From assembly GCA_044223005.1 (NCBI GenBank), contig JBGAML010000002.1, positions 266,457-330,456 of the forward strand: a stretch of 64,000 nucleotides of DNA, read 5' to 3'. This stretch comes from Candidatus Eiseniibacteriota bacterium. Its GTDB lineage: Bacteria; Eisenbacteria; RBG-16-71-46. The notes beneath the pieces are model-generated. The model saw nothing but the letters and a program-made list of their open reading frames with translations, did no database searches and was not told the origin of the DNA. The translations under genes were made by a program, and so were the position numbers. Below are positions 2,981 to 44,551 of the stretch, in pieces (within the stretch, counting starts at the first letter, position 1; each line of letters begins with the position of its first letter).

Positions 2981-3229
2981 GGGGCTCTCCTGCGGCGGAG
3001 ATGGAGTGGGCCGGGCGAACCCGGGGGGGGCGGCGATCGCGGCGGGGGGACCCTCGGCCACCCACCGCGCTGTCGGGTTCCTACGTTCGAGCCGCCCCGG
3101 GCGAACGAGCCCCGGATCCGCCCTTGGTCCCGCGCGTTGCCGGGTCTACGCTTCGAGTGTCGGTCGTCGTTTCGGCCGGGCGGGCCGATCCGCCCGGGTC
3201 GTGCGGTGCGCCGGCACCTCGGAGGTCGC

Positions 3230-5593: not shown

Positions 5594-8374
5594 ATGAGCC
5601 GCCCGCACGCACCCGATGCCGCCGCGTCCGGGAGTGGTTCGCTCCCCGATCCCTGGAGCCGTTTCATGTCCTTCGACGCGTCGCGTTGGCCGCAGGTCGA
5701 GCGCATCGCCGGTGAGGCGTTCGAGCTTCCCGCCGACCAGCGTCGCGCCTTCGCCGAGCGCGAGTGCGGCGCGGACGCCGCGCTGCTCGCCGACGTGCTC
5801 GCGATCCTCGCCGCCGATGCCACCGCCGACCCGGCGCTCGACGTGCCGGCGAGCGAGCAAGCGGCGAACTGGCTCGAGACCGAGGACCGCGACGCGGGTG
5901 CCGGGCTGATCGGCCGCACGCTCGGGCCGTACCGGCTGGTCGGCGTGATCGGCGAGGGCGGCATGGGGCTCGTCTACGACGCCGAGCGCGCGGACGGCCA
6001 GTTCGAGCAGCACGTCGCGATCAAGCTGCTCAAGTGGGCGGGTGCGACGCCGGAATCGCGCAGGCGGTTCCTGCGCGAGCGCCGGATCCTCGCGCAGCTC
6101 GAGCACCCGCACATCGCCCGGCTGATCGACGGTGGCGTCACCGAGGACGGCTCGCCCTGGTTCGCGATGGAGCGCGTGGTGCCGGGCACGCCGATCGACG
6201 CGTGGTGCCGCGAGCGCGCGCTCGACCTGCGCGGGCGGATCGCGCTGGTGCTGCAGGCGTGTGACGCGATCCAGGTCGCGCACGCCCGGCTCGTCGTCCA
6301 CCGGGACTTGAAGCCCAGCAACATCCTCGTCGACGGATCGGGCACGGTGAAGCTGCTCGACTTCGGCATCGCCAAGCTCGTCGAAGAGGACGACGAACAG
6401 GTGACGCACGCGCACGCGCGGCCCATGACGCCGGCCTACGCCTCGCCCGAACAGGTCGGCGGCGGAGAGATCACCACCGCGACCGACGTCTACTCGCTGG
6501 GCGTGGTGCTCTACGTGCTGCTCACGGGGCGCGCGCCGTACGAGAAGCCCGCGACCGGCGCGGGCTGGAGCCAGGCGATCCTCGAGAGCGAGCCCCGGCG
6601 CCCGAGCGCGAACGTGGACGACCGATCGATCGCCTCGCGGCTCACGGGCGACCTCGACCGCATCGTGCTCAAGGCGCTCGAGAAGTCGCCCGAGCGCCGC
6701 TACGCCTCCATGGAAGCGTTCGCCGACGACCTGCGCCGTCACCTCGCGGGCCTGCCCGTGCGCGCACACGAGCCTTCGGTGAGCTATCGCGTGCGGAAGT
6801 TCGTCGCGCGCAACCGGCTGCTCGTGGGCGGTATCGCCGCGACGATCGTCGCACTGGCGATCGGGCTCGGCACCACGCTCTGGCAGGCGCAGCGCGCGCG
6901 CGCCGAGGCGCATCGCGCGGAGGCGGTGCAGGAGTTCCTCGTCAGCGTCTTCCAGTCCTCGGACCCCGACCAGGGGCAGGGCGAGGAACTGACCGCGAAG
7001 GAGATCCTCGAGCGCGGCCGCGCCCGCATCGACCACGAGTTCGCGAGCGACCCGGATGTGCGCATCGCGCTCTGGGAAGTGCTCTCGGACCTCTACACGA
7101 CGATCGGCGACTACCCGTCGGCGCTCGAAGCCTCGCGGCGCCAGTCGTTCGCCGCGCTCGAACGCTACGGTCCGGCGTCGGCCGCCTACGCCCACGCGCG
7201 CCGGGGCATGGCGTCCAACTACCTCGACGTCGAGAAGACCGACTCGACCGTGCTCGTGCTCGCGGAGGCGATGCCAATCCTGCGGCGCACGGTGGGGGAG
7301 CGCAGCGACGACATGATCGAGGCGTACAACGCGCAGGCCGGCGCGGCGGTGGAGCACGGTGACCGCAACGGTGGCATCGTCGCGCAGCGGCGCGCACTCG
7401 CGATCGCACGCACGCTCTACGGCGCCGAATCCTCCGCCGCGGCGCGAATCGAAAACGACCTCAGCGTGTCGCTCGGCGACGCGCCCGAGGGCCTGGTGCT
7501 GGCGCAGCACGTCGAGCGCGTCTACCGGCGCGAGTACGGTGCGGTGTCGTACCTGCACGGCGTCGCGCTCTACAACGTGGGCAACCTGCTCTACGGCGCG
7601 GGCCGGTTCCCCGAAGCCGCCGCGGTGTTCGACTCGCTGTTGCCGATCCAGTTGAAGTTGCTGGGGCCGAAGCATCCCAAGACCGCGCTCACGTACCGCC
7701 AGCTCGCACGCCTGGCCGGCAGCTTCGGCGACTACGACCGGGCGCGCACGCTCATGCTCCAGGCCATCGAGGCGATCGATGCCAACGCGGGCCCCGCGTC
7801 CACCGGCGCGGCGCTCGCCCGCGGCCAGCTCGCGTACATCGAATGGCAGGCGGGCCGCTACGACGACGCGATCCGGCGGGGCCGCGACGCCGTCGACATC
7901 CTGAAGCGTCGCGGCGAGCGCAACGGCAACCTCGCGCTCGCGCTGACCGAACTCTCGCCCGGCTACCTCGGCCACGGTGACGCCGCGCTCGCACGCGCGA
8001 CGGCAGAGGAGGCGGTGCAACTCTCCGAGGGCGAGGACTCGCGCTTCCTCGGCAACGCGCTCCGGCTCGCCGGCGAGGCGCGGCTCGCGCTGGGCGATCG
8101 CGCGGGTGCCGCGACCGTGCTGCAGCGTTCGCTCGCGGCGCAGCGCGCCAACGGCCAGGACCGCATGGTGCCGTACGCCACCGCGATCGGCCTGCTCGCG
8201 CAGGCGCGCGAAGGCACGGCGCCGCGCGCCGAGTGCGACTCGCTTCATCGCGCGGCGCTCGCGCTCTTCGCGAAGATCGCGCCCGCGCAGCAGCGCGAAG
8301 CCGTCGACGCGCGCGCGGCCTACGAACGCTTCCGGCACGGCAGTGCGGGGCCGGGGGGCGGCTCCGCACGCTGA
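5594..8374 (+). CDS. Serine/threonine protein kinase with a transmembrane segment and a long C-terminal TPR region
   Basis: Kinase subdomains are present: GEGGMGLVYDA, VAIKLL, HRDLKPSNILVD, DFGIAKL, SPEQ. A TM helix LLVGGIAATIVALAIGLGTTLW follows, then ~500 aa of TPR-like repeats. An alternative start is MSFDASRW at 5666. Confidence 0.8.
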   Translation: MSRPHAPDAAASGSGSLPDPWSRFMSFDASRWPQVERIAGEAFELPADQRRAFAERECGADAALLADVLAILAADATADPALDVPASEQAANWLETEDRDAGAGLIGRTLGPYRLVGVIGEGGMGLVYDAERADGQFEQHVAIKLLKWAGATPESRRRFLRERRILAQLEHPHIARLIDGGVTEDGSPWFAMERVVPGTPIDAWCRERALDLRGRIALVLQACDAIQVAHARLVVHRDLKPSNILVDGSGTVKLLDFGIAKLVEEDDEQVTHAHARPMTPAYASPEQVGGGEITTATDVYSLGVVLYVLLTGRAPYEKPATGAGWSQAILESEPRRPSANVDDRSIASRLTGDLDRIVLKALEKSPERRYASMEAFADDLRRHLAGLPVRAHEPSVSYRVRKFVARNRLLVGGIAATIVALAIGLGTTLWQAQRARAEAHRAEAVQEFLVSVFQSSDPDQGQGEELTAKEILERGRARIDHEFASDPDVRIALWEVLSDLYTTIGDYPSALEASRRQSFAALERYGPASAAYAHARRGMASNYLDVEKTDSTVLVLAEAMPILRRTVGERSDDMIEAYNAQAGAAVEHGDRNGGIVAQRRALAIARTLYGAESSAAARIENDLSVSLGDAPEGLVLAQHVERVYRREYGAVSYLHGVALYNVGNLLYGAGRFPEAAAVFDSLLPIQLKLLGPKHPKTALTYRQLARLAGSFGDYDRARTLMLQAIEAIDANAGPASTGAALARGQLAYIEWQAGRYDDAIRRGRDAVDILKRRGERNGNLALALTELSPGYLGHGDAALARATAEEAVQLSEGEDSRFLGNALRLAGEARLALGDRAGAATVLQRSLAAQRANGQDRMVPYATAIGLLAQAREGTAPRAECDSLHRAALALFAKIAPAQQREAVDARAAYERFRHGSAGPGGGSAR

Positions 8375-32993: not shown

Positions 32994-33483
32994 GGGCCCA
33001 AACCCAAGCCGGTAGGATAGTGCGTCGCACCGTCACCCACCCGCTGTTGGGCGTCCTTATCATCTTCGGGTAGAGTCCCCGCGGCACTGCCAACTACTCC
33101 AACGGCCGCCCGATCTCGCGATGCTCCCAAGACTCAGGGCGATCATTCATACGACCCCGAGGATTTCGGTCGCATGTCGCCCCCAGTCACGGATGGCCGC
33201 AAGCCCAAAGGGCCTATTCGCCCCAAGCCAGCCGCAGCGATGGTCGCCCCCGGCGGCGTCGAGCGAAAATGTCGCCGCGTTGGCTTCATGATTTGGTCGT
33301 CTGACGCGGTCTCCAATCGACCGCCTCGTGGCCATGAGAGGCACCTTCTGGAGGCGGGGCAGATCTTGCCAGTGTGCAGGGGCGACGGGGCATCGCAAAC
33401 GCAAGGTAGCGCTACATTGCCATGCGGCGGTGGGCAAACGGGCTCCGCTCGACTTCCCGGCGGCCCTACGCGGAGGCGTCGCC

Positions 33484-35598
33484 ATGCCCCCGTCCTCTGA
33501 TGTGCTGCTCGACCTCATTGTCGATGCGATAAGGCGAGTGAGGTCAATACGCCAAGATTCGCCCATTGTCTGGCTCGTGATCCCCGTGCTTGCCTGGCTG
33601 TTTGATGCACAGGGCCTCTTTTCAAATCTTCTGAGTGTAATGGAAAACAAGAGGCAAGCCCGAGCTGCGCGAACACTTCTAGCTCACATATACACTGCCG
33701 ACGATATCGATCGCTATACACGACATTATGTCAAACAGCACTATCTGCAGCACGCACCAACGCACTATGACGAGCCACGCGATGCGCGCCAAGGCGTCAA
33801 GGGGGAGCTGTTCGAATACGTGGATCGCTTTGTGACATCGAAGCAACCAGACGCCAAATTTCTGATGATCTTGGCAGACAGTGGCACCGGCAAGTCGTCA
33901 TTCTGCATAAACTATGTCGTCAAGCGCTCGAGACGTCCTCGCCCTGGATGCAAGTGGATATTGGATTCGCTCGGCGACCCCAAATGTCTCGATCGGGTTC
34001 AGGGTGTCGCCGAGCCGGAGAACGCCATTCTGGTCCTTGATGGTCTGGACGAGGATCCCGCGGCACTCGGCCGATTCCTGGAGCGGTGGGCGGAGATCGA
34101 ACGGGCCACCATTCGCTTCCGCCGTGTCGTGGTCACCTGCCGACTACAATTCATTACGACGGGTTCCCAGTTGCCTCATAGGTCGATTGTGGTTCGTCGT
34201 GCTGGCCCTCAGGCACTGGACGATGACCGTAGGTTCTCAGTCGACCACGTGTATATCTCGCCGCTCAGAGACAGGCAAATCAAGCAGTTCATAGACATGA
34301 GCGTACCGTTCTGGCGAAGGAGGGAGCGCAGCGGCGCGATGCGCCTGGTGAAGGCTATCCCACTGCTTAGCGTGCGCCCTATGTTGCTTGGCTATCTGCC
34401 GCACCTCGCCAAACAAGATCCTGACAGAAAATGGAGTACAACGGAGTTGTATAGAGAGTGTATTGAGCAGTGGCTTGCGCGAGAAGTCGATGCAGATGAT
34501 GCGGAATCCGCCGAGAGAAAGCGGCGCCAGTTGTTGGAGCTATCCATGCAGATTGCAGTGAGTATGTGCGTGCCATCGCACGGCTTGTCCTACCGGGCGG
34601 TTGACATAGCGACGACGCCGGCAGATGGCGGTACTCCGATTCCAACTGATGCAGACGCTGCGGGCGGCCAAAGGGCTGCTCACGCGCTGGAGATGCCGCT
34701 CAGAGATGTTGGTCGTAGTCTGTTGGTGCCCGCGAGCGGTGGTGGATTCAAGTTCGCGCATCGCTCGTTTGCCGAGTATTTTGTTGTAGAGGCCGCGCTT
34801 TCCGGCGAGCGGAGGGCGTGGGGGCAAATGAGCGACATGATGAGACTGTTCTTGAGTGAGCGTCTCGAAGCCTATTGGCCTGAGTTGTCGCGTGGCGTGA
34901 GGCTTCAAGGAACTGCGTGGACCCTGGGAGGCGTGGCCGACAATGCAAAGCTGGACATAGTCGTGCCTGAAGATGCGCGCTACGTACTGCTAAGTAGGCT
35001 GCTGGAGTGTGCAGATGCGCTCGGAAGGGCTCATGAGCAATATTATTCCAGCATAAGATTTGCGTGGGGTGACGAGAAGGTGCGCGGGACAGCAGACAAT
35101 GCGGTGCAGGGCGGGGCGGTGAGTATCAGCGGGCGGGCAATCGGAAGCGACTGGTATAGATTCGAGGAAGAGGCGAGCCCTCGCAATGGAAATGAGCCGA
35201 CATTCTGGGTGGATGTGCTGCCACCGCGATGTGAATATGGCTCTGGTACGTTCCAAGTTGGTTGGAACTCTGCGGGTCGTGTGCGACGTGCAATGTTGTA
35301 TGAGTCCGAGGTGGAGTTGCTTGTATCGGGGAGTCAGAAGACGGCAAAGCGTGAGGTGGTTAGGTGGCGGCGAGTAGGGGTCGCTGAACTCTTGTGCAGT
35401 AATGCTCTGGTGTTTGGCGCGTTGCGCGAGAGAACTGCGGCGGGGATGGCGAGCTTCGAGGCCGGAACATTGCGATTCAAGGTGCGAGGCACGGGGCAGG
35501 CGGTCGTCATGAAGGGCGCAACATGCGAAGGTATGGTGTGGGATCCCAGTTCGGGGTCGTATGAGATTCAGCTGTCGGACCCTTCCCACGCCGAGTGA
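33484..35598 (+). CDS. NACHT/STAND-family P-loop NTPase (bacterial NLR-like; candidate antiviral STAND)
   Basis: Walker A is FLMILADSGTGKSSF (aa ~134-139). Walker B is AILVLDGLDE (aa ~181-190). The sensor-1-like motif is RRVVVTCRLQ. The N-terminal region is ~120 aa with one hydrophobic helix (PIVWLVIPVLAWLF). A ~400-aa Trp-rich C-terminal domain is unassigned. GGAGG lies 8 nt before the ATG. Confidence 0.7.
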   Translation: MPPSSDVLLDLIVDAIRRVRSIRQDSPIVWLVIPVLAWLFDAQGLFSNLLSVMENKRQARAARTLLAHIYTADDIDRYTRHYVKQHYLQHAPTHYDEPRDARQGVKGELFEYVDRFVTSKQPDAKFLMILADSGTGKSSFCINYVVKRSRRPRPGCKWILDSLGDPKCLDRVQGVAEPENAILVLDGLDEDPAALGRFLERWAEIERATIRFRRVVVTCRLQFITTGSQLPHRSIVVRRAGPQALDDDRRFSVDHVYISPLRDRQIKQFIDMSVPFWRRRERSGAMRLVKAIPLLSVRPMLLGYLPHLAKQDPDRKWSTTELYRECIEQWLAREVDADDAESAERKRRQLLELSMQIAVSMCVPSHGLSYRAVDIATTPADGGTPIPTDADAAGGQRAAHALEMPLRDVGRSLLVPASGGGFKFAHRSFAEYFVVEAALSGERRAWGQMSDMMRLFLSERLEAYWPELSRGVRLQGTAWTLGGVADNAKLDIVVPEDARYVLLSRLLECADALGRAHEQYYSSIRFAWGDEKVRGTADNAVQGGAVSISGRAIGSDWYRFEEEASPRNGNEPTFWVDVLPPRCEYGSGTFQVGWNSAGRVRRAMLYESEVELLVSGSQKTAKREVVRWRRVGVAELLCSNALVFGALRERTAAGMASFEAGTLRFKVRGTGQAVVMKGATCEGMVWDPSSGSYEIQLSDPSHAE

Positions 35599-35652
35599 GG
35601 ACGCGAGTGAGCGTGACCCGATCTCGTGGACACCTTTCGAAAGGGGTCTACG

Positions 35653-35904
35653 ATGTCCAGCATGTCCAAGAACGGTGGTCGCCGCCAGCGGCGAGTGTTC
35701 AGTGTGGAGTTCATGGCGGGCGTGGCGGCAGCTGTCGATACGTTGCTGGGCGTAACAGTGCGCGACCTTCGCGCGAGCGTTCTGCACGAGAACGACACTG
35801 CCGAATGTGAGCTCGCTGCAGTTCGGCGGCTTGATGACAGCTACTCGAGTCTTCGACGAGAAATCGACCGCGCGACAGGAATCGGCCAACTGATGCCGAA
35901 GTAA
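35653..35904 (+). CDS. Small Arg-rich protein (83 aa) downstream of the NACHT NTPase
   Basis: AAAGGGG lies 6 nt before the ATG. The N-terminus MSSMSKNGGRRQRRVF is basic. It sits within the low-GC islet on the same strand, 55 nt after the NTPase stop. Confidence 0.4.
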   Translation: MSSMSKNGGRRQRRVFSVEFMAGVAAAVDTLLGVTVRDLRASVLHENDTAECELAAVRRLDDSYSSLRREIDRATGIGQLMPK

Positions 35905-35945
35905 GCGCGGACTCGGCTTCAGGTATCTTCGAACCCGCCTTCGCT

Positions 35946-37742
35946 CTAATTCCTCAGCGTCACCTGCCGCACCCAGACGCCCCGCACGCCCTGCTCCTGG
36001 CCGGCCAGTGCTCGGAACTTGCCGAACACCTCCGTGCCGCGTGATGCGCTGCCAGCCGACACCGGCAGGTCCGCGACGCCGCCGACGCCTCGCAGCTTGT
36101 CCAGCGGGGCGGCGCCGACGCGGGCGTAGCTGATCGGGCGGTCGGGCGAGACCGCGGGCAGCGTTGCGAGCTCGGCTTCGAGTTCGGGGACGGGTTGTGG
36201 GCTCGCCACCACGAGGAAATGCTCGTGGCCGCCGCGGCTGGTCACGACCCAGCCGCTTTCCTTGCCGGCGCGCGTGCCGGGCATTCGCACCGTGGCGCCG
36301 GCGGCGATCGGGTTCTTCTGGTCGAACAGTGGTTGCGGGAACAGCAGGTACGATTCGCCCTTGTCGTCGGCGTTGAGCACGTAGACGTACGCGGGCTGGC
36401 TCGCGCGGAACTCCAGCAGCAGCCGATCTCCGGGCTTCACGGCGTCGCCGTCCACCAGCGCGGTGGTCGAGCCGGCGTCGCCTCGCATCAGCGTCGCGCT
36501 CACGTCGTATGCGACCGGCGCCACTGCCGCAAGCGAAGGTGCGGGCGTCGGCACCTCCGTCGTCCGCGGCCGCAGGCGCGGCCACGCGAGCAGCGCGGCG
36601 ACGGCGACCACCGCCCCGATCGCCAGCGGCAGCGCGAGCTGGCCGCGTCGCGACGCGGTTACCGCGCGCGCGCCGCCCATCGTCCCGGCCGCGCTGCCCG
36701 CGACGGTCGCGTCACGCGCTGCCGCGCCCGCGTCGCGCGCGCCGACCGCCCCGGCGCCCGCATCCGCCACGCACGCCTCCAGCGCCGCGCGCGCGTCGGT
36801 CGCGCTCGCGAACCGCGCCGCCGGAGCTGCCGCCATCAGCCGCTCGATCGCGGCGACCAGCGCTGGCGGCGCACCCGGGGCGTCGGCGGCCAGCGCCACC
36901 GCGGGCCCCGCGGCGGCCTCCGCACGTAACGCCTCCAAAGAAGAAGCCGCGAACGGCGCGCGCCCGGTCAGCGCGCGCCGCAGCGTGACGCCGAGCGCGT
37001 ACAAGTCATCCGAAGCGCACGCGACAGCGCCAAGAAGCCGCGCGGGCGACATGTACGCGGGAGTGCCCGAAAACGGCCGCGCAAGCCCGGCAGCAGAACC
37101 CGCATGCTCCCCGAGCCCGAAGTCGACGAGCACGAAGTGGCCGTCGTCGGTGGCGATCACGTTCGCGGGCTTCACGTCGCGGTGCAGCGCTCCGGCGCCG
37201 TGCACGGCGGCCAGCGCGCGCGCCATCTCGGCGCCCAACTGCGCCACGCGCGCGGGCGCGAGTGCTCCCATGCCGAGCAGCACTTCGAGCGAGGGGCCGC
37301 GCAGGTACTCCATCCAGAACCCGGCGCGGCCGTCGTGTTCGGCGGCGCCGTGCACGGTGACCACGTGCGGATCGCGCACCCGCGCCAGCGCGCGTGCTTC
37401 GTCGAGCATGGTGCCGACGGGCGCTCCGGTGCGTGCGAGCTTCAAGGCGACCTCGCGCCGCAGCGAGGGGTCCCAGGCGCGATACACGCTGCCGTCGGCG
37501 CCTTCGCCGGCCTTCTCCAGCAGCAGCAGCTCGCCCCAGCGGCCGCCCTCGAACAGGCCGCCGTCGTCGGCGCCGTGCTGCAGCGAGCGGTGAAAGTCGG
37601 CGACGCGCGAGAGGTCGTGCAGCGTCCGCACGTGCTCGCGCTGCTTCGCGTCGGCGGCGCCTTCGGCGCGCGCCCAGTCGGTGGGCTCACCGTTGGCGAT
37701 CGACTCGAGCAGTTCCTGCAGTGCGCGTTCGTCAGGCGTCAT
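35946..37742 (-). CDS. Serine/threonine protein kinase with a TM segment and an extracytoplasmic C-terminal domain
   Basis: The kinase motifs are GEGADGSVYRA, VALKL, HRDVKPANV, DFGLG and SPAR. A TM helix LALPLAIGAVVAVAALLAW is present. Its start overlaps the upstream ECF sigma stop by 11 nt. Confidence 0.8.
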   Translation of the reverse strand: MTPDERALQELLESIANGEPTDWARAEGAADAKQREHVRTLHDLSRVADFHRSLQHGADDGGLFEGGRWGELLLLEKAGEGADGSVYRAWDPSLRREVALKLARTGAPVGTMLDEARALARVRDPHVVTVHGAAEHDGRAGFWMEYLRGPSLEVLLGMGALAPARVAQLGAEMARALAAVHGAGALHRDVKPANVIATDDGHFVLVDFGLGEHAGSAAGLARPFSGTPAYMSPARLLGAVACASDDLYALGVTLRRALTGRAPFAASSLEALRAEAAAGPAVALAADAPGAPPALVAAIERLMAAAPAARFASATDARAALEACVADAGAGAVGARDAGAAARDATVAGSAAGTMGGARAVTASRRGQLALPLAIGAVVAVAALLAWPRLRPRTTEVPTPAPSLAAVAPVAYDVSATLMRGDAGSTTALVDGDAVKPGDRLLLEFRASQPAYVYVLNADDKGESYLLFPQPLFDQKNPIAAGATVRMPGTRAGKESGWVVTSRGGHEHFLVVASPQPVPELEAELATLPAVSPDRPISYARVGAAPLDKLRGVGGVADLPVSAGSASRGTEVFGKFRALAGQEQGVRGVWVRQVTLRN

Positions 37743-38334
37743 GTCGCATCGCCTCCGCCAGTCGTCCGAGCGCGCGCGTCACGGCCATGCGCACGGCATC
37801 CCTGCTGTCGCGTCCGGTCATCACGCGGATCTCCTCGTAGTTCCAGTCGAGCTCCACCTTGAGGTGGAGCAGGTGCTGGTCCTCGGGCGAGAGCGTCGTG
37901 AACGCGCGTTCGTATCGCTGCGCGAGGTCGGCGCCGATCGCCAGTTCCAGCGGCGAGGGCCCGGCATCGGGGAGCGAGTCGGGCACTTCACCGGGTCCGG
38001 GACGCCGGTCGGCGTATCGGATCCCATCCCGAATACGATTGAGCACGGCGGAACGAACGTAGGCCTCGAACCCGCCGGGGCCGCGCAGTTCGACCCGGTC
38101 CAGGTTCTCGAACGTCCGCAGCAACGTCTCCTGCACCAGGTCGACGGTGTCGAACAGGCTCCGCGCGCGCGCCGGGATCCGGCCGCTGGCCCAGCGGCGC
38201 AGGCGCGGCAAGTAACGCGCGGCCAGCGACTCCAGCGCATTGCGGTCGCCGTCCTTGGCGCGGCGCAGCAAGCTGGTCGTCGACTCGAGCGCGTCGCCCG
38301 GCGAGGGCGGCAATGGAGCGGATGGAGGGCTCAT
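37732..38334 (-). CDS. ECF-family sigma-70 factor co-transcribed with the Ser/Thr kinase
   Basis: Regions 2 and 4 are present (LESLAARYLPRLRRWASGRI; FTTLSPEDQHLLHLKVELDWNYEEIRVMTGRDSRDAVRMAVTRALGRLAE). Confidence 0.8.
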   Translation of the reverse strand: MSPPSAPLPPSPGDALESTTSLLRRAKDGDRNALESLAARYLPRLRRWASGRIPARARSLFDTVDLVQETLLRTFENLDRVELRGPGGFEAYVRSAVLNRIRDGIRYADRRPGPGEVPDSLPDAGPSPLELAIGADLAQRYERAFTTLSPEDQHLLHLKVELDWNYEEIRVMTGRDSRDAVRMAVTRALGRLAEAMRHDA

Positions 38335-38507
38335 GGCGTCTCGGGGTCCCGGGGTGCTTCCGGCTGGCCGTTCATTGTAGAGGGCGCCACGCCTTGCTGC
38401 GAAGAACTGATCGCGAGCCGGGCCTTGCCAGTGCTAGCTTGCCCGGATTCGCCGCCCGGGCCGGCGTTTCCCGGCAGGCCCGATCATTCCCCGGAGGACC
38501 GCCCGTG

Positions 38508-41500
38508 ATGCGCCTGGCCTGCCTCGCCGCACTGTTCGCGCTGCTGCTGGGTGGCTCGTTCTCACCGTCGGCGGCGCGTCCCAAGGCTCCCGCGGGGCGG
38601 GACACGGTGGTCGTCCAGGCGGAGTGGGACAGCCTGATCGCGCTCCAGTCGGCGCGCCGGTACGCGGTGGTCGACAGCGTGGCGCAGGCGCTGATCGCGC
38701 GGATCGAGGCGTCGCCGCACCCGGACACGCTCGACCTCACGCACGCGCTCTCGTTCGTCGCGGCGGCGCGCTACTCGCAGCGGCTGGTCAACGACGGCAA
38801 GGCGGGCGACGCGATCGAGCGGCTGATCACGCTGCGCGCCCGGCACGTGCCGCCGGGCGAGAAGCTCATGGTGTGGGCCGAGGGCTGGGCGGCGCGTTAC
38901 TTCGACGACGTGGGCCAGCACGACAAGGCGTACGAGCACGCGCGAGGGTTCCTGGACCAGCTCCGGGCGCAGTCGCCCATGGACACGCTGCGCGTCGCGG
39001 CGGCGACCCGCCGCATGGCGCTGGCGCTGCACTTCCTGGGGCGCGAATCCGAGGCGCGCGAGCAGTTCCTGCGCGCGATCGAGATCGCGCGCTCCAAGAC
39101 GATCCCGACGTGGGAAGAGCAGCTCGCCACGCTGGGCGAGTACGGCCAGTACCTGAGCGATCTGGGCGAGTTCGACGCGGCGCGCGACTACCTGAACCGC
39201 GCGCGAGAGATCGGCGAGCACCACAAGGAGGCTGCCGCCCAGCTCGACGAGGTGTTCGGGCGGCTCACCACGCTCGAGCAGCGCGTGGGCAACCTCGCCG
39301 ACGCGGTGGACCTGGCGCAGCGCTCGTACGAGCTGACCCGCGTGCGCTTCGGCGAGAATGCGGCGCCGACGCTGCGGGCGCGCGTGCGGCTGGCGTACCG
39401 GATCTCCGACCTGGGCGATCACGCCGAGGCGCTGCGGCGGCTGCGCGAGATCGCGCCGGTCATGGCGGAGCAGATCGGCCGCACCAACCCGCAGGTGATC
39501 AACGTGCGCATCTCGGCGCTCGAGGACGCTGCTGCGGTGGGCGACACGACCGGCATGCGCGCCGAGCTGGCGGCGCTCTGGCCGATCGTCATGTCGACGG
39601 CGACGCCGCTCTCCAACGCCACCTACCTGCACGCGATGGGCTCGGTGGTCGCGCGATTGCGCGGCGACGAACGCGCCGCATGGGATTCGCTCGAAGTGGC
39701 GGTGCGCGGCATCTGGCCGGAACGCACGCGCTGGGGCGGCCGCCTCGCCGATCTCGCGAGCGAGGAGGCGGTGCTGCTGGCGGGGCCCGGCGACCGCGAC
39801 CGCGCGGAGCAGCTCTTCGCGCGCATCGACACGCTGACGCGCGAAACGAGCGCGCGCGCGGCGGCGGAGTGGCCGCACTGGCTCGAGTCGCGCGCGGGAC
39901 TCGAGGCGCGGCTGGGGCTCGCGGACTCGGCGTGGACGCACGCGCTGCAAGCGGCATCGCTGCAGCGCGAACGGCTTCGCTACCAGGCCTACGCGCTCTC
40001 CGACCACCAGGCGGTGCAGCTGGCCGAGCAGTCGGTCACCTCGGGCGACGTGCTGGACCAGCTGGCGAGCGCGGGCGATCCGGCGCGCGCGGCGGCAGCG
40101 TGGGAGCAGCAGATCCGCTGGCGCGGGCTGGTGCGCGAAGAGGTGACGTCGCGGCGCCTCGCGGCGTGGCAGGCGGCGGACACGGCGGTGGCGGGAGCGC
40201 ATGCGCGCTGGCTCGCGGCGCAGCGTTCGCTCGCGCAGCTCGTGGTCTCGGGTGCGGCGCACCCCGACGATCCGGCTACGGCGGAGCGCTTCGCGCAGGC
40301 GCGCGCGGCGGCCGACGCGGCCGAACAGCAGATGGGCCGCGCGGTGGGCGGCGCTTCGGTCGACACGGTGACGCTGACGCACGTGCTCTCGCACCTCTCG
40401 CCGCGGCAGGCGCTGGTCGGCTTCGCCACCGCGGGCACGGGTCGCGACGCGCGCACGCTGGGCGCGTTCGTCGCCGTGGCGGGCGGCACGCCGCGCTGGG
40501 TGACGCTGGGCGACGAGGGCGCGCTGGGCGACGCGATCGCGGCGTGGACGGCCGCGCTCGCGACGCCACCGTCGGGCGCGCCGGCCGCGATCCGCGCGGC
40601 GGAGCGGGCGTGCCGCGCGAAGGGTGCCGTGGTGCGCGAGAAGCTCTGGGCGCCTGTGCTGCGCGCGCTGGGCGACGTGACGGACGTGTTCGTGGTGCCC
40701 GAGGCCTCGACGTGGAACGTGCCGTGGCTCGCACTGCCGGTGGGCGAGGCGGGCTACGTGGCCGACGCGCCCTACGTGGTGCACCTGCTCAACGCCGAGC
40801 GCGAGCTGCTGCGGCCGTCGCTGCCCGCGAAGGGCGGGCTGCTCGCGGTGGGCGATCCGGATTTCGACCTGACGCCGGCGGCGGCCGACACGAGCCACGC
40901 CGCGACCCGCTCGGGTGTGACGGGCTGGCCGTGCGCCGACGGACGCCCGGCGCGGCTGGAATCGCTGCCCGCGGCGCGTGCCGAGGTGCAGGCGATCGCG
41001 GCGCTCTGGCCCGTGCGCGCGGGCGCGTCCGAGCTGCGCGTGGGAAATCGCGCCGACGAAGCGGACTTCAAGCGCGAGGCGCCGGGCCGCGCGGTGATCC
41101 ACCTCGCGACGCACGGCATCGTGCTCAGCGACACGTGCGTGGCGGTCGGCAGCACGGCGCTGCGCGGTGTGGGCGGTGTGGCCGCGCTCGCCGCGCCGTC
41201 GCAGTCGCCGAAGCGCGCGCCGGGCGCGAGCGCCGCCGCGCCGCGTGCCTCGGCGCCGCGACAGGTGCCGGGGCACGTGTGGCTCGCGTTCGCGGGCGCC
41301 AACCACGCGGCCGACGGCGCGCACGACGAGAACGAGGGCCTGCTTACCGCCGAGGAGGTGGCGACGCTCGACCTCGCGGGCACCGACTGGGTCGTGCTCT
41401 CGGCGTGTCATTCGGGCGAGGGCGAGACGTGGCTGCGCGAGGGCCAGTCGGGCATGCGCCGCGCGTTCCACCTTGCGGGCGTGCGCACGGTGATCGCGAG

Positions 41501-41687
41501 CCGCTGGGCGGTGGCCGACGCCGCGACGCGCGAGTGGATGGTGGCGCTTTATCGCGGGCGCTCGCACGGGCTCGCGGCCGCGCCCGCGGTTCGCGCGGCG
41601 GCGCGTGAGGTGCTGGCCCGGCGCCGCACCGACGGCCGCTCGACGCACCCGTTCTTCTGGGCGGGTTTCGAGGCCTCCGGGCGGTAG
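38508..41687 (+). CDS. Secreted TPR-repeat protein with a C-terminal CHAT (caspase-like) domain
   Basis: The signal peptide is MRLACLAALFALLLGGSFSPSAA. It has long TPR-like helical repeats. The CHAT region carries the His/Cys dyad context HLATHG...LSACHSGEG. It lies divergent from the ECF sigma/kinase operon. Confidence 0.75.
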   Translation: MRLACLAALFALLLGGSFSPSAARPKAPAGRDTVVVQAEWDSLIALQSARRYAVVDSVAQALIARIEASPHPDTLDLTHALSFVAAARYSQRLVNDGKAGDAIERLITLRARHVPPGEKLMVWAEGWAARYFDDVGQHDKAYEHARGFLDQLRAQSPMDTLRVAAATRRMALALHFLGRESEAREQFLRAIEIARSKTIPTWEEQLATLGEYGQYLSDLGEFDAARDYLNRAREIGEHHKEAAAQLDEVFGRLTTLEQRVGNLADAVDLAQRSYELTRVRFGENAAPTLRARVRLAYRISDLGDHAEALRRLREIAPVMAEQIGRTNPQVINVRISALEDAAAVGDTTGMRAELAALWPIVMSTATPLSNATYLHAMGSVVARLRGDERAAWDSLEVAVRGIWPERTRWGGRLADLASEEAVLLAGPGDRDRAEQLFARIDTLTRETSARAAAEWPHWLESRAGLEARLGLADSAWTHALQAASLQRERLRYQAYALSDHQAVQLAEQSVTSGDVLDQLASAGDPARAAAAWEQQIRWRGLVREEVTSRRLAAWQAADTAVAGAHARWLAAQRSLAQLVVSGAAHPDDPATAERFAQARAAADAAEQQMGRAVGGASVDTVTLTHVLSHLSPRQALVGFATAGTGRDARTLGAFVAVAGGTPRWVTLGDEGALGDAIAAWTAALATPPSGAPAAIRAAERACRAKGAVVREKLWAPVLRALGDVTDVFVVPEASTWNVPWLALPVGEAGYVADAPYVVHLLNAERELLRPSLPAKGGLLAVGDPDFDLTPAAADTSHAATRSGVTGWPCADGRPARLESLPAARAEVQAIAALWPVRAGASELRVGNRADEADFKREAPGRAVIHLATHGIVLSDTCVAVGSTALRGVGGVAALAAPSQSPKRAPGASAAAPRASAPRQVPGHVWLAFAGANHAADGAHDENEGLLTAEEVATLDLAGTDWVVLSACHSGEGETWLREGQSGMRRAFHLAGVRTVIASRWAVADAATREWMVALYRGRSHGLAAAPAVRAAAREVLARRRTDGRSTHPFFWAGFEASGR

Positions 41688-41800
41688 CCGCGCGGCGGCT
41701 CGGCCCCCGTGTTCGCTCCGGGCGGGCGGGACGTAGGGAGAACGCGAGCCCATCCGCGCGCGGTGCGTGGGTGGTCCGACCCACCCTCGAGGAGCGCCCC

Positions 41801-44551
41801 ATGCGCCGCCGCATCGCCGCAGCGATCCTGCTCACCGCCTGCTGCTGTGCCCCGCTGCCCACGTTCGCCCAGTGCGAGCGGTGGCTGCCCGGCCCGTTCG
41901 ACAATGGCACCGCCAGCAGCGTCGTCGGCAAGCTCTATTGCTCGACGTCGTGGGATCCGGACGGCGACGGGCCGCTGTTCCCGCGCCTCGTGGTGGCGGG
42001 CAGCTTCACCTCGATCGGCGGCGTCGCGACCCACAACGTCGCGTGGCGCGATCCCGCGACGGGAACGTGGAACGCGTTCGGTCCGGGGATCACCTTCACC
42101 GTCCGCGCGCTCGCGGTGCTGAACGGCCAGGTCGTCGCGGCCGGCGATGGCGACACGAATCCCGCGGCCGACGACGACAACGTCCTGCGCTGGAACGGCG
42201 TCTCGTGGGCGAGCCTGGGCGGTGGTACGGCGACGGGCAACGTGAACGCGCTCGCGGTCTGGAACGGCGAGCTCTACGCGGGCGGCTACTTCGTCGCGAA
42301 TCCGTCCTGGGCCGACCCCGTCAGCAACATCGGGCGCTGGGACGAGGCGACCGCGACGTGGCAATCCGTGGGCGGCGGCACGGACGGCACGGTGTCCGCG
42401 CTGCACGCCTGGCAGGGCGTGCTCTACGCGGGCGGCTCGTTCCACCACGCGGGCGGGGTGGCCGCGAACTACATCGCGCGCTTCGACGGCACGTGGCACG
42501 CGCTGTCGAGCGAGCCGAAGTACTACGTCAACGACCTCGAGGGCGGTTACAACGGCGAGCTCCTCGCGGCCACGTCGTTCACCGGCGCGAATGGCGCGAC
42601 GACCCCGGCCGTCGGGGGCTGGAACGGCTTCAGCTGGAACGTGCGGGCGGTGCAGGCGGTGCCGAGCGGCATCTTCCTGACCTGTGGCATCTACAATGGT
42701 TCGATCTACGCCGGCGGATCGTTCGAATCGCTCGATGGGATGTTGGCCGGAGGCGTGGCGCGATGGGACGGCACGCGCTGGGTGTCGGTCGGCCAGGGGG
42801 CCGTGAATCACGCGGCGGTGATCTACGACCTGGCACCCTACAACGGCGAGCTGCTCGCGGTGGGCGACGTCCAACAGCTCGACTTCATTCCCGTGGGCGG
42901 CATCGGCCGCTGGAACGGCACGGAATGGGGAGCGTTCGGCGGCTATTCGGCGCTGAGCGTGGCGGCGATGACGCCGTACAACGGCCGCCTGGTCGCGGGC
43001 GGGTACTTCCATGCGTACGCGGGCACGGGACCGTCCGTGTCGAACATCGGCGCCTGGCGAGGCACGACGGGGCTCTCGGCGTTCGGCACGGGGACGGACG
43101 CCGACGTCACGGCGCTGTGCGCCTACACGTCCGGAACCCTGGTGAATCCCAGCTACGAGCTGGTCGCGGGTGGGTACTTCACCGTCGCGGGCGGCCTCGC
43201 CTGCAATCACGTCGCGCGCTGGATCGAGAAGACGACCATCATCACGCCTCCGGCGTGGGCGCCGATGGGCCAGGGGTTCAACGCGGCGGTGAGCGCGCTC
43301 GAGCGCTACAACAGCGCGCTCTATGCCGGCGGCAGCTTCACGGCCTCGGGCGCCACGCCGCTCGGCCACATCGCGCGCTGGAACACGGCGGCCAGCAGCT
43401 GGGAATCGGTCGGCAACTTCGACGGCTCGGTCGAGGCGCTCAAGGTCTGGAACGGCCAGCTCTACGCCGGCGGCTCCTTCACCAGCGTGAACGGCGTCCC
43501 GACCGGTGGACTCGCGCGCTGGAACGGCTCGACGTGGTCCGCATGCGGCGGCGTCTTCTCCACCGGGTACGTGCATGCGCTCGAGGTCTACAACGGCCAG
43601 CTCGTGATCGGCGGGGAGTTCACCGGCGTGCCGGGCAGCCCGAACCTCGCGACGTGGGACGGCACCAGCATCTCCACGCTCGGCTCGGGCGGCACGAATC
43701 GCGCCGTCCACGCCCTGCGAGCGGCTGGGACCCGGCTCTACGTGGGCGGCGAGTTCCTGCTCGCCGGCGGCCTGTCGTGCCAGCACCTCGCCTGGTGGGA
43801 CGGGACGTGGCACGCGATGAGCGGCGCCACCAACACCGTGGAGTCGATGTGCCTCTACAACGGTGAGCTGCACGTGGGCGGCAGCTTCCAGTACGTGGAC
43901 GACGGCCTGCTCCGCGCTCCGACGTGGGCCCGCTACACCGAGACCGGCGTGCCGTGGTTCGCGACGCAGCCCTCGTCGCGCAACGTCGCGCCGGGGACGA
44001 ACGTCACGTTCACCGCGTCGCCGCCGCCGGGCTACAGCGGCTACTCGACGCAGTGGTACCGCAACGGCGTCCCGCTCGCTGACGGGTTCACGGGACATGG
44101 TTCGATCGTGTCGGGCGCGCACACGAGCACGCTCGAGATCGACTTCACCAACGGCCAGACCGACTGGGGGAAGTACCACGCGGAGATGAGCAACAGCTGC
44201 GGCAGCGTGCAGAGCGTGGACGCGACGCTGTCGTTCGACGGCTACGCCGACGTGGCGCCGGGCGGCACGCTCCAGACCGCGTTCGCCGCCATGGGCCCCA
44301 ACCCGAGCCGCGGCGCGACGACGCTGCAGTACTCGCTCGCCCGCGACGCCGACGTGCGCGTGCGCGTGCACGACATCGCGGGCCGGCTCGTGTGGTCGCG
44401 CGAGCTCGGGCACGTGGCGGCGGGCCGCCACGCCGCGGAGTGGGACGCCCGCGACGCGGGTGGCGACCGCGTGCGTGCGGGGCTCTACCTCGTGACGCTC
44501 GAGGTCGACGGCGCGCGGCTCGCGGCGCGGCGGCTCGTGGTGACGAGGTAG
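41801..44551 (+). CDS. Large secreted repeat (beta-propeller-like) protein with an Ig-like domain and a T9SS-type CTD; paralogue of 224..2980
   Basis: GAGGAG lies 6 nt before the ATG. The signal peptide is MRRRIAAAILLTACCCAPLPTFA, followed by the QCERWLPGPFDNGT motif. There are >12 repeats (YAGGSF....GG.....IARW.G..W). The C-terminal PNPSRGATTLQYSL...GLYLVTL is the CTD. Confidence 0.75.
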   Translation: MRRRIAAAILLTACCCAPLPTFAQCERWLPGPFDNGTASSVVGKLYCSTSWDPDGDGPLFPRLVVAGSFTSIGGVATHNVAWRDPATGTWNAFGPGITFTVRALAVLNGQVVAAGDGDTNPAADDDNVLRWNGVSWASLGGGTATGNVNALAVWNGELYAGGYFVANPSWADPVSNIGRWDEATATWQSVGGGTDGTVSALHAWQGVLYAGGSFHHAGGVAANYIARFDGTWHALSSEPKYYVNDLEGGYNGELLAATSFTGANGATTPAVGGWNGFSWNVRAVQAVPSGIFLTCGIYNGSIYAGGSFESLDGMLAGGVARWDGTRWVSVGQGAVNHAAVIYDLAPYNGELLAVGDVQQLDFIPVGGIGRWNGTEWGAFGGYSALSVAAMTPYNGRLVAGGYFHAYAGTGPSVSNIGAWRGTTGLSAFGTGTDADVTALCAYTSGTLVNPSYELVAGGYFTVAGGLACNHVARWIEKTTIITPPAWAPMGQGFNAAVSALERYNSALYAGGSFTASGATPLGHIARWNTAASSWESVGNFDGSVEALKVWNGQLYAGGSFTSVNGVPTGGLARWNGSTWSACGGVFSTGYVHALEVYNGQLVIGGEFTGVPGSPNLATWDGTSISTLGSGGTNRAVHALRAAGTRLYVGGEFLLAGGLSCQHLAWWDGTWHAMSGATNTVESMCLYNGELHVGGSFQYVDDGLLRAPTWARYTETGVPWFATQPSSRNVAPGTNVTFTASPPPGYSGYSTQWYRNGVPLADGFTGHGSIVSGAHTSTLEIDFTNGQTDWGKYHAEMSNSCGSVQSVDATLSFDGYADVAPGGTLQTAFAAMGPNPSRGATTLQYSLARDADVRVRVHDIAGRLVWSRELGHVAAGRHAAEWDARDAGGDRVRAGLYLVTLEVDGARLAARRLVVTR

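Follow-up and report, generated by a model that had tools for sequence, protein, structure and literature searches.

An ECF sigma factor–Hanks kinase pair of Candidatus Eiseniibacteriota linked to a predicted exported TPR-CHAT protease that shares a loop motif with the kinase ectodomain

We analysed a 64,000-nucleotide stretch of a Candidatus Eiseniibacteriota contig (GenBank assembly GCA_044223005.1, contig JBGAML010000002.1, positions 266,457 to 330,456 of the forward strand; hereafter the window). The analysis covers a module of three genes that encode a sigma factor of the extracytoplasmic function (ECF) class, a membrane serine/threonine kinase and a protein combining TPR repeats with a CHAT domain (TPR-CHAT). 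Related loci are labelled with L-numbers and public proteins with P-numbers, L001 being the locus of the window's CHAT gene. An earlier reading of the letters alone (the sequence-only reading) had placed three open reading frames (ORFs) here, and all three are present with the extents and strands it gave (Table 1). The public gene calls for the CHAT protein (P0001, 1059 aa) and the kinase (P0027, 598 aa) are equal in length, with 100% identity and coverage. The stop codon of the sigma gene and the ATG of the kinase gene overlap by 11 nt, with GGAGG preceding the kinase start, and 173 nt separate the sigma start from the divergent CHAT start, both as first described. Pfam and NCBIfam matches bear out the identities proposed for the three products, namely an ECF sigma factor, a serine/threonine kinase with an extracytoplasmic domain, and a TPR-CHAT protein.

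Table 1. Coordinates of the module and of other features of the window (positions are those of the window; aa, amino acids; AF2, AlphaFold2; pLDDT, predicted local distance difference test score; A1 and A4, alignments described in the text).
Feature	Position	Strand	Basis or remark
ECF-type sigma factor, 200 aa, overlaps the kinase gene	37732..38334	-	Sigma70_r2 E=9e-8; TIGR02937 54.4 bits
Thr63 codon in the sigma-2.2 motif D62-T63-V64-D65, candidate phospho-acceptor	38146..38148	-	family alignment
Sigma-70-type (housekeeping) promoter-like site upstream of sigma, TTCGCA-N18-TACAAT	38374..38403	-	sole such site in 35800..38600
Membrane Hanks-type Ser/Thr kinase, 598 aa	35946..37742	-	Pkinase E=1.3e-30 and DUF4384 (Pfam)
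Cytoplasmic extension of about 70 aa before the kinase domain, invariant D22-W23	37533..37742	-	alignment A1; no Pfam match
Kinase catalytic domain, residues 75-330; Gly-loop, VALK Lys101, HRDVKPAN and DFG intact	36753..37520	-	Pfam and A1
Single predicted transmembrane helix, residues 369-387, LALPLAIGAVVAVAALLAW	36582..36638	-	read directly from sequence
DUF4384 (PF14326) core of the extracytoplasmic domain, Ig-like beta-sandwich	36192..36440	-	
Kinase ectodomain motif L550-R-G-V-G-G-V-A557	36072..36095	-	A1 conservation
Variable loop, predicted disordered, kinase residues 552-579, begins right after R551	36006..36089	-	AF2
TPR-CHAT protein (clan CD, caspase-fold), 1059 aa, predicted exported	38508..41687	+	Pfam, AF2
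Signal-peptide-like N-terminus MRLACLAALFALLLGGSFSPSAA	38508..38576	+	read directly from sequence
TPR superhelix, about residues 30-628	38595..40391	+	TPR_12; AF2 all-helical over 30-627
CHAT protease domain, residues 709-1058	40632..41681	+	Pfam
Catalytic His869 and Cys967	41112..41114 and 41406..41408	+	HLATHG and VLSAC motifs
Variable low-complexity insert between His and Cys, residues 873-922, predicted disordered	41124..41273	+	AF2 pLDDT <50
CHAT loop motif L885-R-G-V-G-G-V-A892, 16 residues after the catalytic His	41160..41183	+	A4 conservation
Conserved motif TCCCTACGTCC in the CHAT-propeller intergenic region	41729..41739	-	same motif in related loci
Beta-propeller/I-set/FlgD_ig protein	41771..44551	+	Pfam
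P-loop protein, 704-756 aa, low-GC stretch	33328..35598, start more likely 33484	+	GTGKS and LVLDGLDE visible
Small ORF beside the P-loop gene	35626..35904		low-GC stretch
Second sigma factor, PF07638 Sigma70_ECF, 182 bits	4830..5396	-	Pfam
926-aa Pkinase and TPR protein, divergent from the second sigma factor	5594..8374	+	Pfam

The sigma factor belongs to the ECF class (group IV) by its match to TIGR02937 (sigma70-ECF; 54.4 bits against a cutoff of 42.9). No anti-sigma Pfam domain was found among the neighbouring genes in the window, at L001 or at L169-L171, in line with the earlier proposal that the kinase takes the place of an anti-sigma factor. The sigma therefore shows the genetic arrangement of the ECF43 group, a co-encoded Hanks kinase and no anti-sigma gene. 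The sigma-2.2 segment of such factors contacts RNA polymerase β′. Its canonical motif is DxxDxxQE, whereas the ECF43 consensus is QTTA (PMC13147305), with DxxD swapped for uncharged residues and a phospho-threonine at position 3 (PMC13147305, PMC8999054). By motif, the window family is not ECF43-like, since its sigma-2.2 sequence (D/E/N-T-x-D-L-V-Q-E) keeps both aspartates as D-T-x-D and has its invariant threonine, Thr63, at position 2. This threonine is the same in 44 distinct family sigmas, and by analogy with ECF43 its phosphorylation by the kinase is a reasonable supposition.

The kinase combines Pkinase with DUF4384, an architecture that defines a large conserved family with more than 2,400 homologue matches; members with names given by their source come mostly from Candidatus Eisenbacteria/Eiseniibacteriota metagenome-assembled genomes. 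In alignment A1 (36 kinase-family sequences, 45-66% identity over full length), residues K101, E115, D189, N194 and D207-F208-G209 are invariant, and a hydrophobic segment lies at the position of the transmembrane (TM) helix in 36/36 members. Because every catalytic hallmark is invariant, the kinase is very probably active. The N-terminal extension may serve as a sigma-docking segment; PknS of Xanthomonas citri has a comparable conserved extension of 83 aa (PMC13147305).

The ectodomain is more conserved than the rest of the kinase, with a mean column identity of 70% versus 54% overall. Residues 435-517 match DUF4384/PF14326 (E=8.8e-16, 58.2 bits against a cutoff of 27), and the AlphaFold2 (AF2) model folds as an Ig-like beta-sandwich for which no specific structural relative was found. 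The predicted local distance difference test score (pLDDT) of this model falls below 50 at model residues 146-165 and 168-173, which were mapped to kinase numbering. A profile of the ectodomain collects 2,332 representative clusters at 50% identity, and the domain is always C-terminal in its protein. L007 has an 89-aa ORF (5625..5939, +), divergent from a CHAT gene, whose match to the ectodomain is confined to the C-terminal half (profile positions 88-192, E=1e-44); either a second sigma-kinase module left this remnant or the fragment is a free-standing piece of ectodomain. Joining L007 and L008 shows two different CHAT genes flanking the kinase P0030.

The third protein carries a CHAT domain (PF12770, E=7e-49, 167 bits against a cutoff of 24) behind a TPR array that also matches TPR_12. 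Together with a conserved His-Cys dyad, this places it in the TPR-CHAT class and predicts a protease function. Neither HLATHG nor VLSAC varies among 17 CHAT proteins taken from the loci or in alignments A3 and A4. His869 and Cys967 are thus retained in every alignment made, and the loss of the dyad that the sequence-only reading had named as grounds for abandoning it is not seen. The insert between the two residues differs in length and sequence among CHAT orthologues. The AF2 model of the protein (pLDDT 77, predicted template modelling score 0.69) was compared with the PDB by Foldseek, and the best matches were DdvA (8ROT, E=5e-12), human separase and the craspase subunit Csx29 (8EEY, 7ZOQ and 8EEX). 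PDB sequence searches with the CHAT protein and with profiles of the ectodomain, the full TPR-CHAT protein and the CHAT domain gave no informative match. An anti-sigma domain in the CHAT protein was sought in Pfam and NCBIfam and gave no match; the signal-peptide-like segment leads straight into the TPR helices. Most CHAT orthologues start with such segments, and because of these N-termini the protease and the kinase ectodomain would be expected in the same extracytoplasmic compartment.

The three genes keep together in other genomes. Scanning metagenomes for the family-specific ectodomain yielded 80 loci, annotated with hidden Markov models built for this analysis; the sample leans to soil metagenomes and contains near-duplicate loci. 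As a control we used 80 generic-kinase loci (1.31 Mb) from a genome scan with the full-length kinase alignment, which among the matches listed returned only generic kinases (HRDxKPAN pattern). The sigma gene lies directly upstream of the kinase gene in 50/53 loci with a complete kinase N-terminus. A TPR-CHAT gene occurs within 3.5 kb in 12/21 loci informative upstream, 6/48 informative downstream and 9/13 informative on both sides, versus no CHAT match in the 1.31 Mb around unrelated kinases. Three further loci (L169-L171), picked only for their megabase contigs, all have the triad, each as an apparent operon. Conserved linkage had been named in the sequence-only reading as a check, and the module is indeed conserved at many other loci.

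The arrangement of the genes varies more than their association. All four relative orientations of the CHAT gene occur, and the kinase ectodomain identities span 40-63%. Among the nearest members of the kinase family, the layout of L005 (propeller–CHAT | sigma–kinase) is an exact mirror of the window, at L008 the CHAT gene lies upstream and co-directional, at L007 it is convergent downstream, and L006 has no CHAT gene. In many loci CHAT shares an operon with sigma and kinase, the gaps ranging from -4 to about 150 nt, as in L170 (4-nt overlap), L123 (6-nt gap), L169 (16-nt gap) and L171 (32-nt gap). Sigma/kinase overlaps of 8-17 nt also occur in L005, L006, L008 and L169-L171.

Several loci carry additional genes. 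In one deeper subclade the module includes a second caspase-fold protease, Peptidase_C11 (clostripain family, clan CD). Its gene occupies the interval between TPR-CHAT and sigma or, at contig edges, the position directly upstream of sigma, in L136, L138 (6659..7894, -), L139 and L156 and also in L133, L144, L157, L159, L160, L163 and L164. It is present neither in the window nor in most loci. A second family-type sigma gene follows directly after the kinase gene, in the order CHAT-sigma-kinase-sigma, in L150 (4193..4771), L151 (10767..11222) and L162 (3703..4263); within the available sequence no family kinase comes after it.

The promoter of the sigma-kinase operon appears to be of the housekeeping type. 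In 38 non-redundant sigma upstream regions, a search for an ECF-type two-block (-35/-10) motif gave nothing above shuffled controls, and the GGAAC-type promoter that the sequence-only reading had expected in the 38335..38507 intergenic region was not found. A GGAAC-type autoregulatory promoter is thus rejected at the sensitivity of the two-block search. A TAnnnT hexamer is present at -90..-21 in 30/38 family upstream regions versus 3-6/38 in distal windows; the consensus anchored on it is TATnAT, with no conserved -35, which is the housekeeping-promoter style of high-GC bacteria. In the window, the site TTCGCA-18-TACAAT occurs once in 35800..38600, against 0.0 expected from shuffles. Because the promoter is of this type, the operon is probably made constitutively, which fits a sigma factor held inactive post-translationally and a CHAT protein that, where it lies in the operon, is a co-expressed partner.

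The intergenic motif TCCCTACGTCC also occurs at L005 (~340), L006 (~6205), L098 (~3792 and ~7162), L091 (~7871) and L094 (~1455). Its intergenic position is equivalent in L005, L006 and L098, it lies upstream of CHAT in the sense direction in L091 and L098, and in four loci it precedes a FlgD_ig/propeller gene by 34-85 nt in antisense direction. The motif's enrichment relative to the control loci is weak (about 2.4-fold), its orientation is variable, and it has no fixed -35 partner.

The kinase and the CHAT protein share a short motif. Kinase residues 550-557 and CHAT residues 885-892 are an identical 8-mer in the window, and both copies stand at the start of loops that AF2 predicts to be disordered. 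In A1, L550, R551, G552 and G554 are invariant and G555 is nearly invariant, and LRG[VIM]GG is found in nearly all of about 85 kinase loci. On the CHAT side, R-G-x-G is invariant in A4, and R-G-x-G-(G/A) lies 16-17 aa after the catalytic His in 17/17 CHAT proteins. The pattern RG[VI]GG is otherwise rare, with one occurrence in 168,017 aa of unrelated high-GC proteins and none in 120,952 aa of other locus genes, or about 1 in 290,000 residues overall. The codons of the two copies differ at the third position in 6/8 cases, and recent gene conversion is therefore ruled out as the source of the identity. Shared descent alone cannot make the loops alike either, because the kinase and the CHAT protein are not homologous.

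The two copies also vary together. Both proteins of L145 have RGVAGLVTA, both of L169 have RGM, and in L091 GGVEPL stands against GGVEPI. Co-variation was assessed on 16 loci, one representative per distinct kinase motif, with 50,000 shuffles and with the kinship of loci ignored. On this basis, flanking residues match in 29 cases versus 16.1 expected (reached by 5/50,000 shuffles), variable positions of the core match in 41 versus 33.8 expected (7/50,000), and 0/50,000 shuffles reach the observed value for both combined. Decay of the kinase motif was not seen where no CHAT gene adjoins, as L093, L110 and L134 keep RGVGG or RGIGG; L006 has RGVGE, a single anecdotal case.

Sigma factor–Hanks kinase pairs and the control of ECF sigmas by TPR-CHAT proteins have each already been described. 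The former are known as the ECF43 pairs EcfP/PknT of Vibrio parahaemolyticus and EcfK/PknS of X. citri (PMC8999054, PMC13147305). As in the window, the ECF sigma gene there adjoins the gene of a single-pass membrane Hanks kinase without an anti-sigma factor, the kinase carries an extension at its N-terminus along with an extracytoplasmic domain, and the sigma-2.2 motif holds a conserved threonine. They differ in having QTTA with the phospho-threonine at position 3 instead of D-T-x-D with the threonine at position 2. Moreover, the periplasmic part of PknS consists of TPRs, not DUF4384, and no protease partner has been described for ECF43 pairs.

The known system closest to the module is DdvS/DdvA of Myxococcus xanthus (PMC11506125; 8ROT), and DdvA is the best structural match of the CHAT model. 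DdvA is an extracytoplasmic TPR-CHAT protein with a His/Cys dyad, genetically coupled to an ECF sigma, and has been proposed as a periplasmic site-1 protease whose caspase-like cut near the membrane initiates signalling to the sigma; the reported range of DdvA-like proteins is confined to Myxococcota and a single Comamonas species (PMC11506125). However, DdvA has a cytoplasmic zinc anti-sigma domain on its N-terminal side, joined to the TPR-CHAT part by a TM helix, and its sigma is freed by RseP intramembrane proteolysis. The window CHAT protein has no such fusion and no anti-sigma domain. It is a separate, predicted exported protein, the membrane component is a Hanks kinase, and sigma control would be by phosphorylation. 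Regulated proteolysis of anti-sigma factors, in which RseA is cut by DegS and then by RseP, is alike in that the periplasmic side of a membrane protein controlling an ECF sigma is the target of a protease in the periplasm. That pathway relies on a PDZ-sensing serine protease and removes an inhibitor, whereas in the window the enzyme would be a clan-CD cysteine protease and its target a kinase; neither an anti-sigma factor nor any sign of intramembrane proteolysis is seen.

The type III-E Craspase system (Cas7-11, Csx29, Csx30, Csx31 and RpoE; 10.1101/2022.08.17.504292) also unites a TPR-CHAT protease, Csx29, which is among the top structural matches of the window CHAT, with an ECF sigma and a partner protein that controls it. 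That partner, Csx30, binds the ECF sigma and is cut by Csx29 where its C-terminal domain begins; in some orthologues this domain is DUF4384 (10.1101/2022.08.17.504292). Craspase, however, is cytoplasmic, RNA-guided and Cas7-11-dependent, and its partner is anti-sigma-like; in the window the partner is a kinase, and CHAT and DUF4384 would lie on the extracytoplasmic side. Type III-E loci are marked by Cas7-11 (gRAMP) and a CRISPR array; no cas families were found among the annotated neighbours of L001 and L169-L171, and the module is not assigned to this type. DUF4384 is physically joined to caspase-fold proteases in orthocaspases (PMC8283722, PMC7475262), with fusions in 23/473 cyanobacterial members (PMC8283722); in the window the domain and the protease are on separate polypeptides, tied by synteny and motif. 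A literature search, which was not exhaustive, found no description of a triad of sigma, DUF4384 kinase and free exported TPR-CHAT, of its C11 variant or of the shared motif. The module ties together three subjects hitherto treated apart: sigma phosphorylation as in ECF43, TPR-CHAT control of ECF sigmas as in DdvA and Craspase, and the recurrence of the uncharacterised DUF4384 domain beside caspase-fold proteases.

On balance, and with modest confidence, we favour a module of sigma factor, kinase and exported CHAT protease in which the protease acts on the kinase sensor through the shared loop. The absence of an ECF promoter, the frequent co-operonic position of CHAT and the shared co-evolving motif together point to CHAT as a partner of the kinase sensor rather than a mere output of the regulon. 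The regulated extracytoplasmic proteolytic module of the sequence-only reading is in this respect upheld for its linkage and its dyad, and revised for the place it gave to CHAT within the regulon.

The steps could be as follows. The sigma factor and the kinase would be made together from the housekeeping-type promoter through their overlapping genes. By analogy with EcfP/PknT and EcfK/PknS, the kinase would control the sigma factor by phosphorylation, with Thr63 as the best candidate site. Outside the membrane, the DUF4384 beta-sandwich of the kinase would expose the invariant L-R-G-V-G-G loop, and the CHAT protein would offer the same motif in a flexible loop beside its own active site, so that one cleft, the CHAT active site, might recognise both copies. 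The loop of CHAT itself could be an auto-inhibitory or auto-processing segment. Auto-cleavage sites similar to those in substrates are common among clan-CD proteases such as separase and caspases. For CHAT, the kinase loop would serve as substrate or pseudosubstrate, probably with arginine at P1, as in separase, metacaspases and clostripain. A signal received through the TPR array or the ectodomain would then alter the cleavage or docking of the kinase sensor, and thereby kinase activity and sigma activation.

More tentatively, and as a possibility short of a firm proposal, the exported caspase-fold protease may gate the kinase by cutting or occupying its ectodomain loop. LRGVGG would then be a co-evolving degron that also serves the protease as its own auto-inhibitory or auto-processing segment, and the cascade would run from protease to Hanks kinase to ECF sigma. 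If true, bacteria would here have their first protease-controlled Hanks kinase, a counterpart of the ectodomain shedding of receptor kinases, and there would be a concrete answer to how kinase-linked ECF sigmas get their signals. Signal sensing by the Hanks kinases that control ECF sigmas is largely unexplained, reviews stating that PknT 'somehow senses' its stress (PMC8999054), and the module points to a co-encoded exported caspase-like protease as the input. Given that the family is large and mostly named from the poorly studied Eisenbacteria, it may be among the main envelope-signalling systems of this lineage.

Several observations weigh against this interpretation. The export of CHAT is based on inspection of its N-terminus by eye. 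The relatedness of the loci cuts the number of independent co-variation events, to at least five by eye, and co-variation cannot separate recognition by CHAT from recognition by some other genome-variable factor. Kinases and orthocaspases in general have DUF4384, FGE-sulfatase and GUN4 as common accessory domains, and because such domains are so widely shared, DUF4384 may be a mere generic sensor domain. Both DxxD aspartates are retained in the sigma factor, which may therefore bind core RNA polymerase without phosphorylation. The closest CHAT homologues by word-indexed search, P0002 and P0003 (52% identity), have no sigma or kinase gene within 10 kb; taken alone, this would amount to the lack of linkage that the sequence-only reading had set against itself, and the kinase-based search gives the opposite picture. 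Finally, 3/13 fully readable sigma-kinase loci have unrelated neighbours and no adjacent clan-CD protease, and their kinases keep the motif. CHAT adjacency is hence frequent, not obligatory, and trans-acting pairs must be assumed.

The unlinked CHAT orthologues at L002 and L004 are followed by a conserved, secreted-looking protein of 200 aa without a Pfam match (L002 13278..13880, L004 13293..13895); it has the length of the sigma factor by coincidence and is unrelated to it.

Other explanations account for the motif data less directly. One is that CHAT is an output: the kinase would sense an unrelated envelope signal through DUF4384, and the sigma factor would switch on the protease and propeller proteins as effectors. 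ECF sigmas often regulate their neighbours, and synteny alone cannot tell regulators from targets (PMC7826278). The divergent CHAT gene of the window has parallels in about 11 other loci, and an intergenic motif with a CGTC core lies near CHAT or propeller genes in several. We nevertheless regard this explanation as unlikely. No ECF-type two-block promoter is shared, TCCCTACGTCC has neither a fixed -35 partner nor a constant orientation, and in at least 13 loci CHAT is co-directional with sigma-kinase, at close spacing or with overlap, downstream of a housekeeping-type -10. Nor would this explanation account for the LRGVGG motif that both proteins share and that co-varies. An output role and a partner role for CHAT are compatible if the operon is also autoregulated.

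Less probable still is a third factor, such as another protease (for example C11), a chaperone or an envelope structure, that recognises both loops, with CHAT and kinase only co-regulated or co-localised. The C11 protease in one subclade would suit it, as would the kinases that keep the motif where CHAT is missing, and co-variation across loci from different genomes, one locus each, cannot separate a factor encoded at the locus from one encoded elsewhere. Yet neither the window nor most loci have the C11 gene, no further gene is shared across the loci, and RG[VI]GG is missing from all other neighbouring genes. The CHAT copy, moreover, lies in a flexible loop, 16 residues away from the catalytic His of the same protein, as would be expected of an auto-processing or auto-inhibitory segment.

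An antiviral or programmed-cell-death module, with the low-GC P-loop gene beside the kinase marking a defence island, is suggested by analogy and seems to us quite improbable. The closest characterised TPR-CHAT/ECF systems, DdvA/DdvS and Craspase, are both defence-linked, and the adjoining P-loop NTPase gene is low in GC and probably horizontally acquired. Against this, PADLOC returned nothing for the CHAT or P-loop gene and only generic kinase-domain matches for the kinase, and the annotated surroundings of L001 and L169-L171 contain no cas, CBASS or other defence genes. The orthologous loci L005 and L006 lack the P-loop gene, and the neighbours are mostly housekeeping genes or genes for secreted glycoside-hydrolase/FlgD_ig proteins. 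Chance adjacency, TPR-CHAT genes being simply common in these genomes, is strongly disfavoured: it would account for the unlinked L002 and L004 homologues and the three readable loci without a protease neighbour, but not for adjacency in 9/13 and 3/3 loci against none in the controls, in four orientations, nor for the co-varying motif of CHAT and kinase.

The low-GC stretch next to the kinase gene is real, with a GC content of 0.59-0.60 at 33-36 kb versus about 0.72 elsewhere in the window. The sequence-only reading had called it a NACHT islet, a label that no profile supports: the P-loop protein has a Walker A-like GTGKS and a Walker B-like LVLDGLDE, but searches for Pfam, NCBIfam and PADLOC families, NACHT/STAND profiles included, gave no match. 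Two distant homologues were found among 5.8 billion proteins (31-32% identity), one of them with PF07603. The gene is probably a horizontally acquired orphan NTPase; a tRNA gene that could mark integration was sought in the window and none was found. The conserved module does not include the P-loop gene: at that position the orthologous locus L005 has DUF3800-type genes.

A second ECF sigma and TPR-kinase pair, noted by the sequence-only reading as divergent, is likewise present in that arrangement (Table 1). It is of a different type, its kinase having cytoplasmic-type TPRs and no DUF4384, and it has no CHAT neighbour.

Downstream of CHAT, the propeller protein may be an accessory component or a target of the module. 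It recurs as a neighbour in the window's own subclade: CHAT or sigma is flanked by full-length relatives in L005, L006, L170 and L171, and by a weaker one in L002, with varying orientations. This adjacency could be due to chance, since a paralogue at 227..2992 (-) is unlinked to any CHAT gene. These proteins end in a FlgD_ig domain; TIGR04183 scores 20.7, just below its cutoff of 23. The same C-terminal domain is carried by many other secreted proteins of these genomes, including glycoside hydrolases and an amylase, which suggests a lineage-specific C-terminal sorting or anchoring tag.

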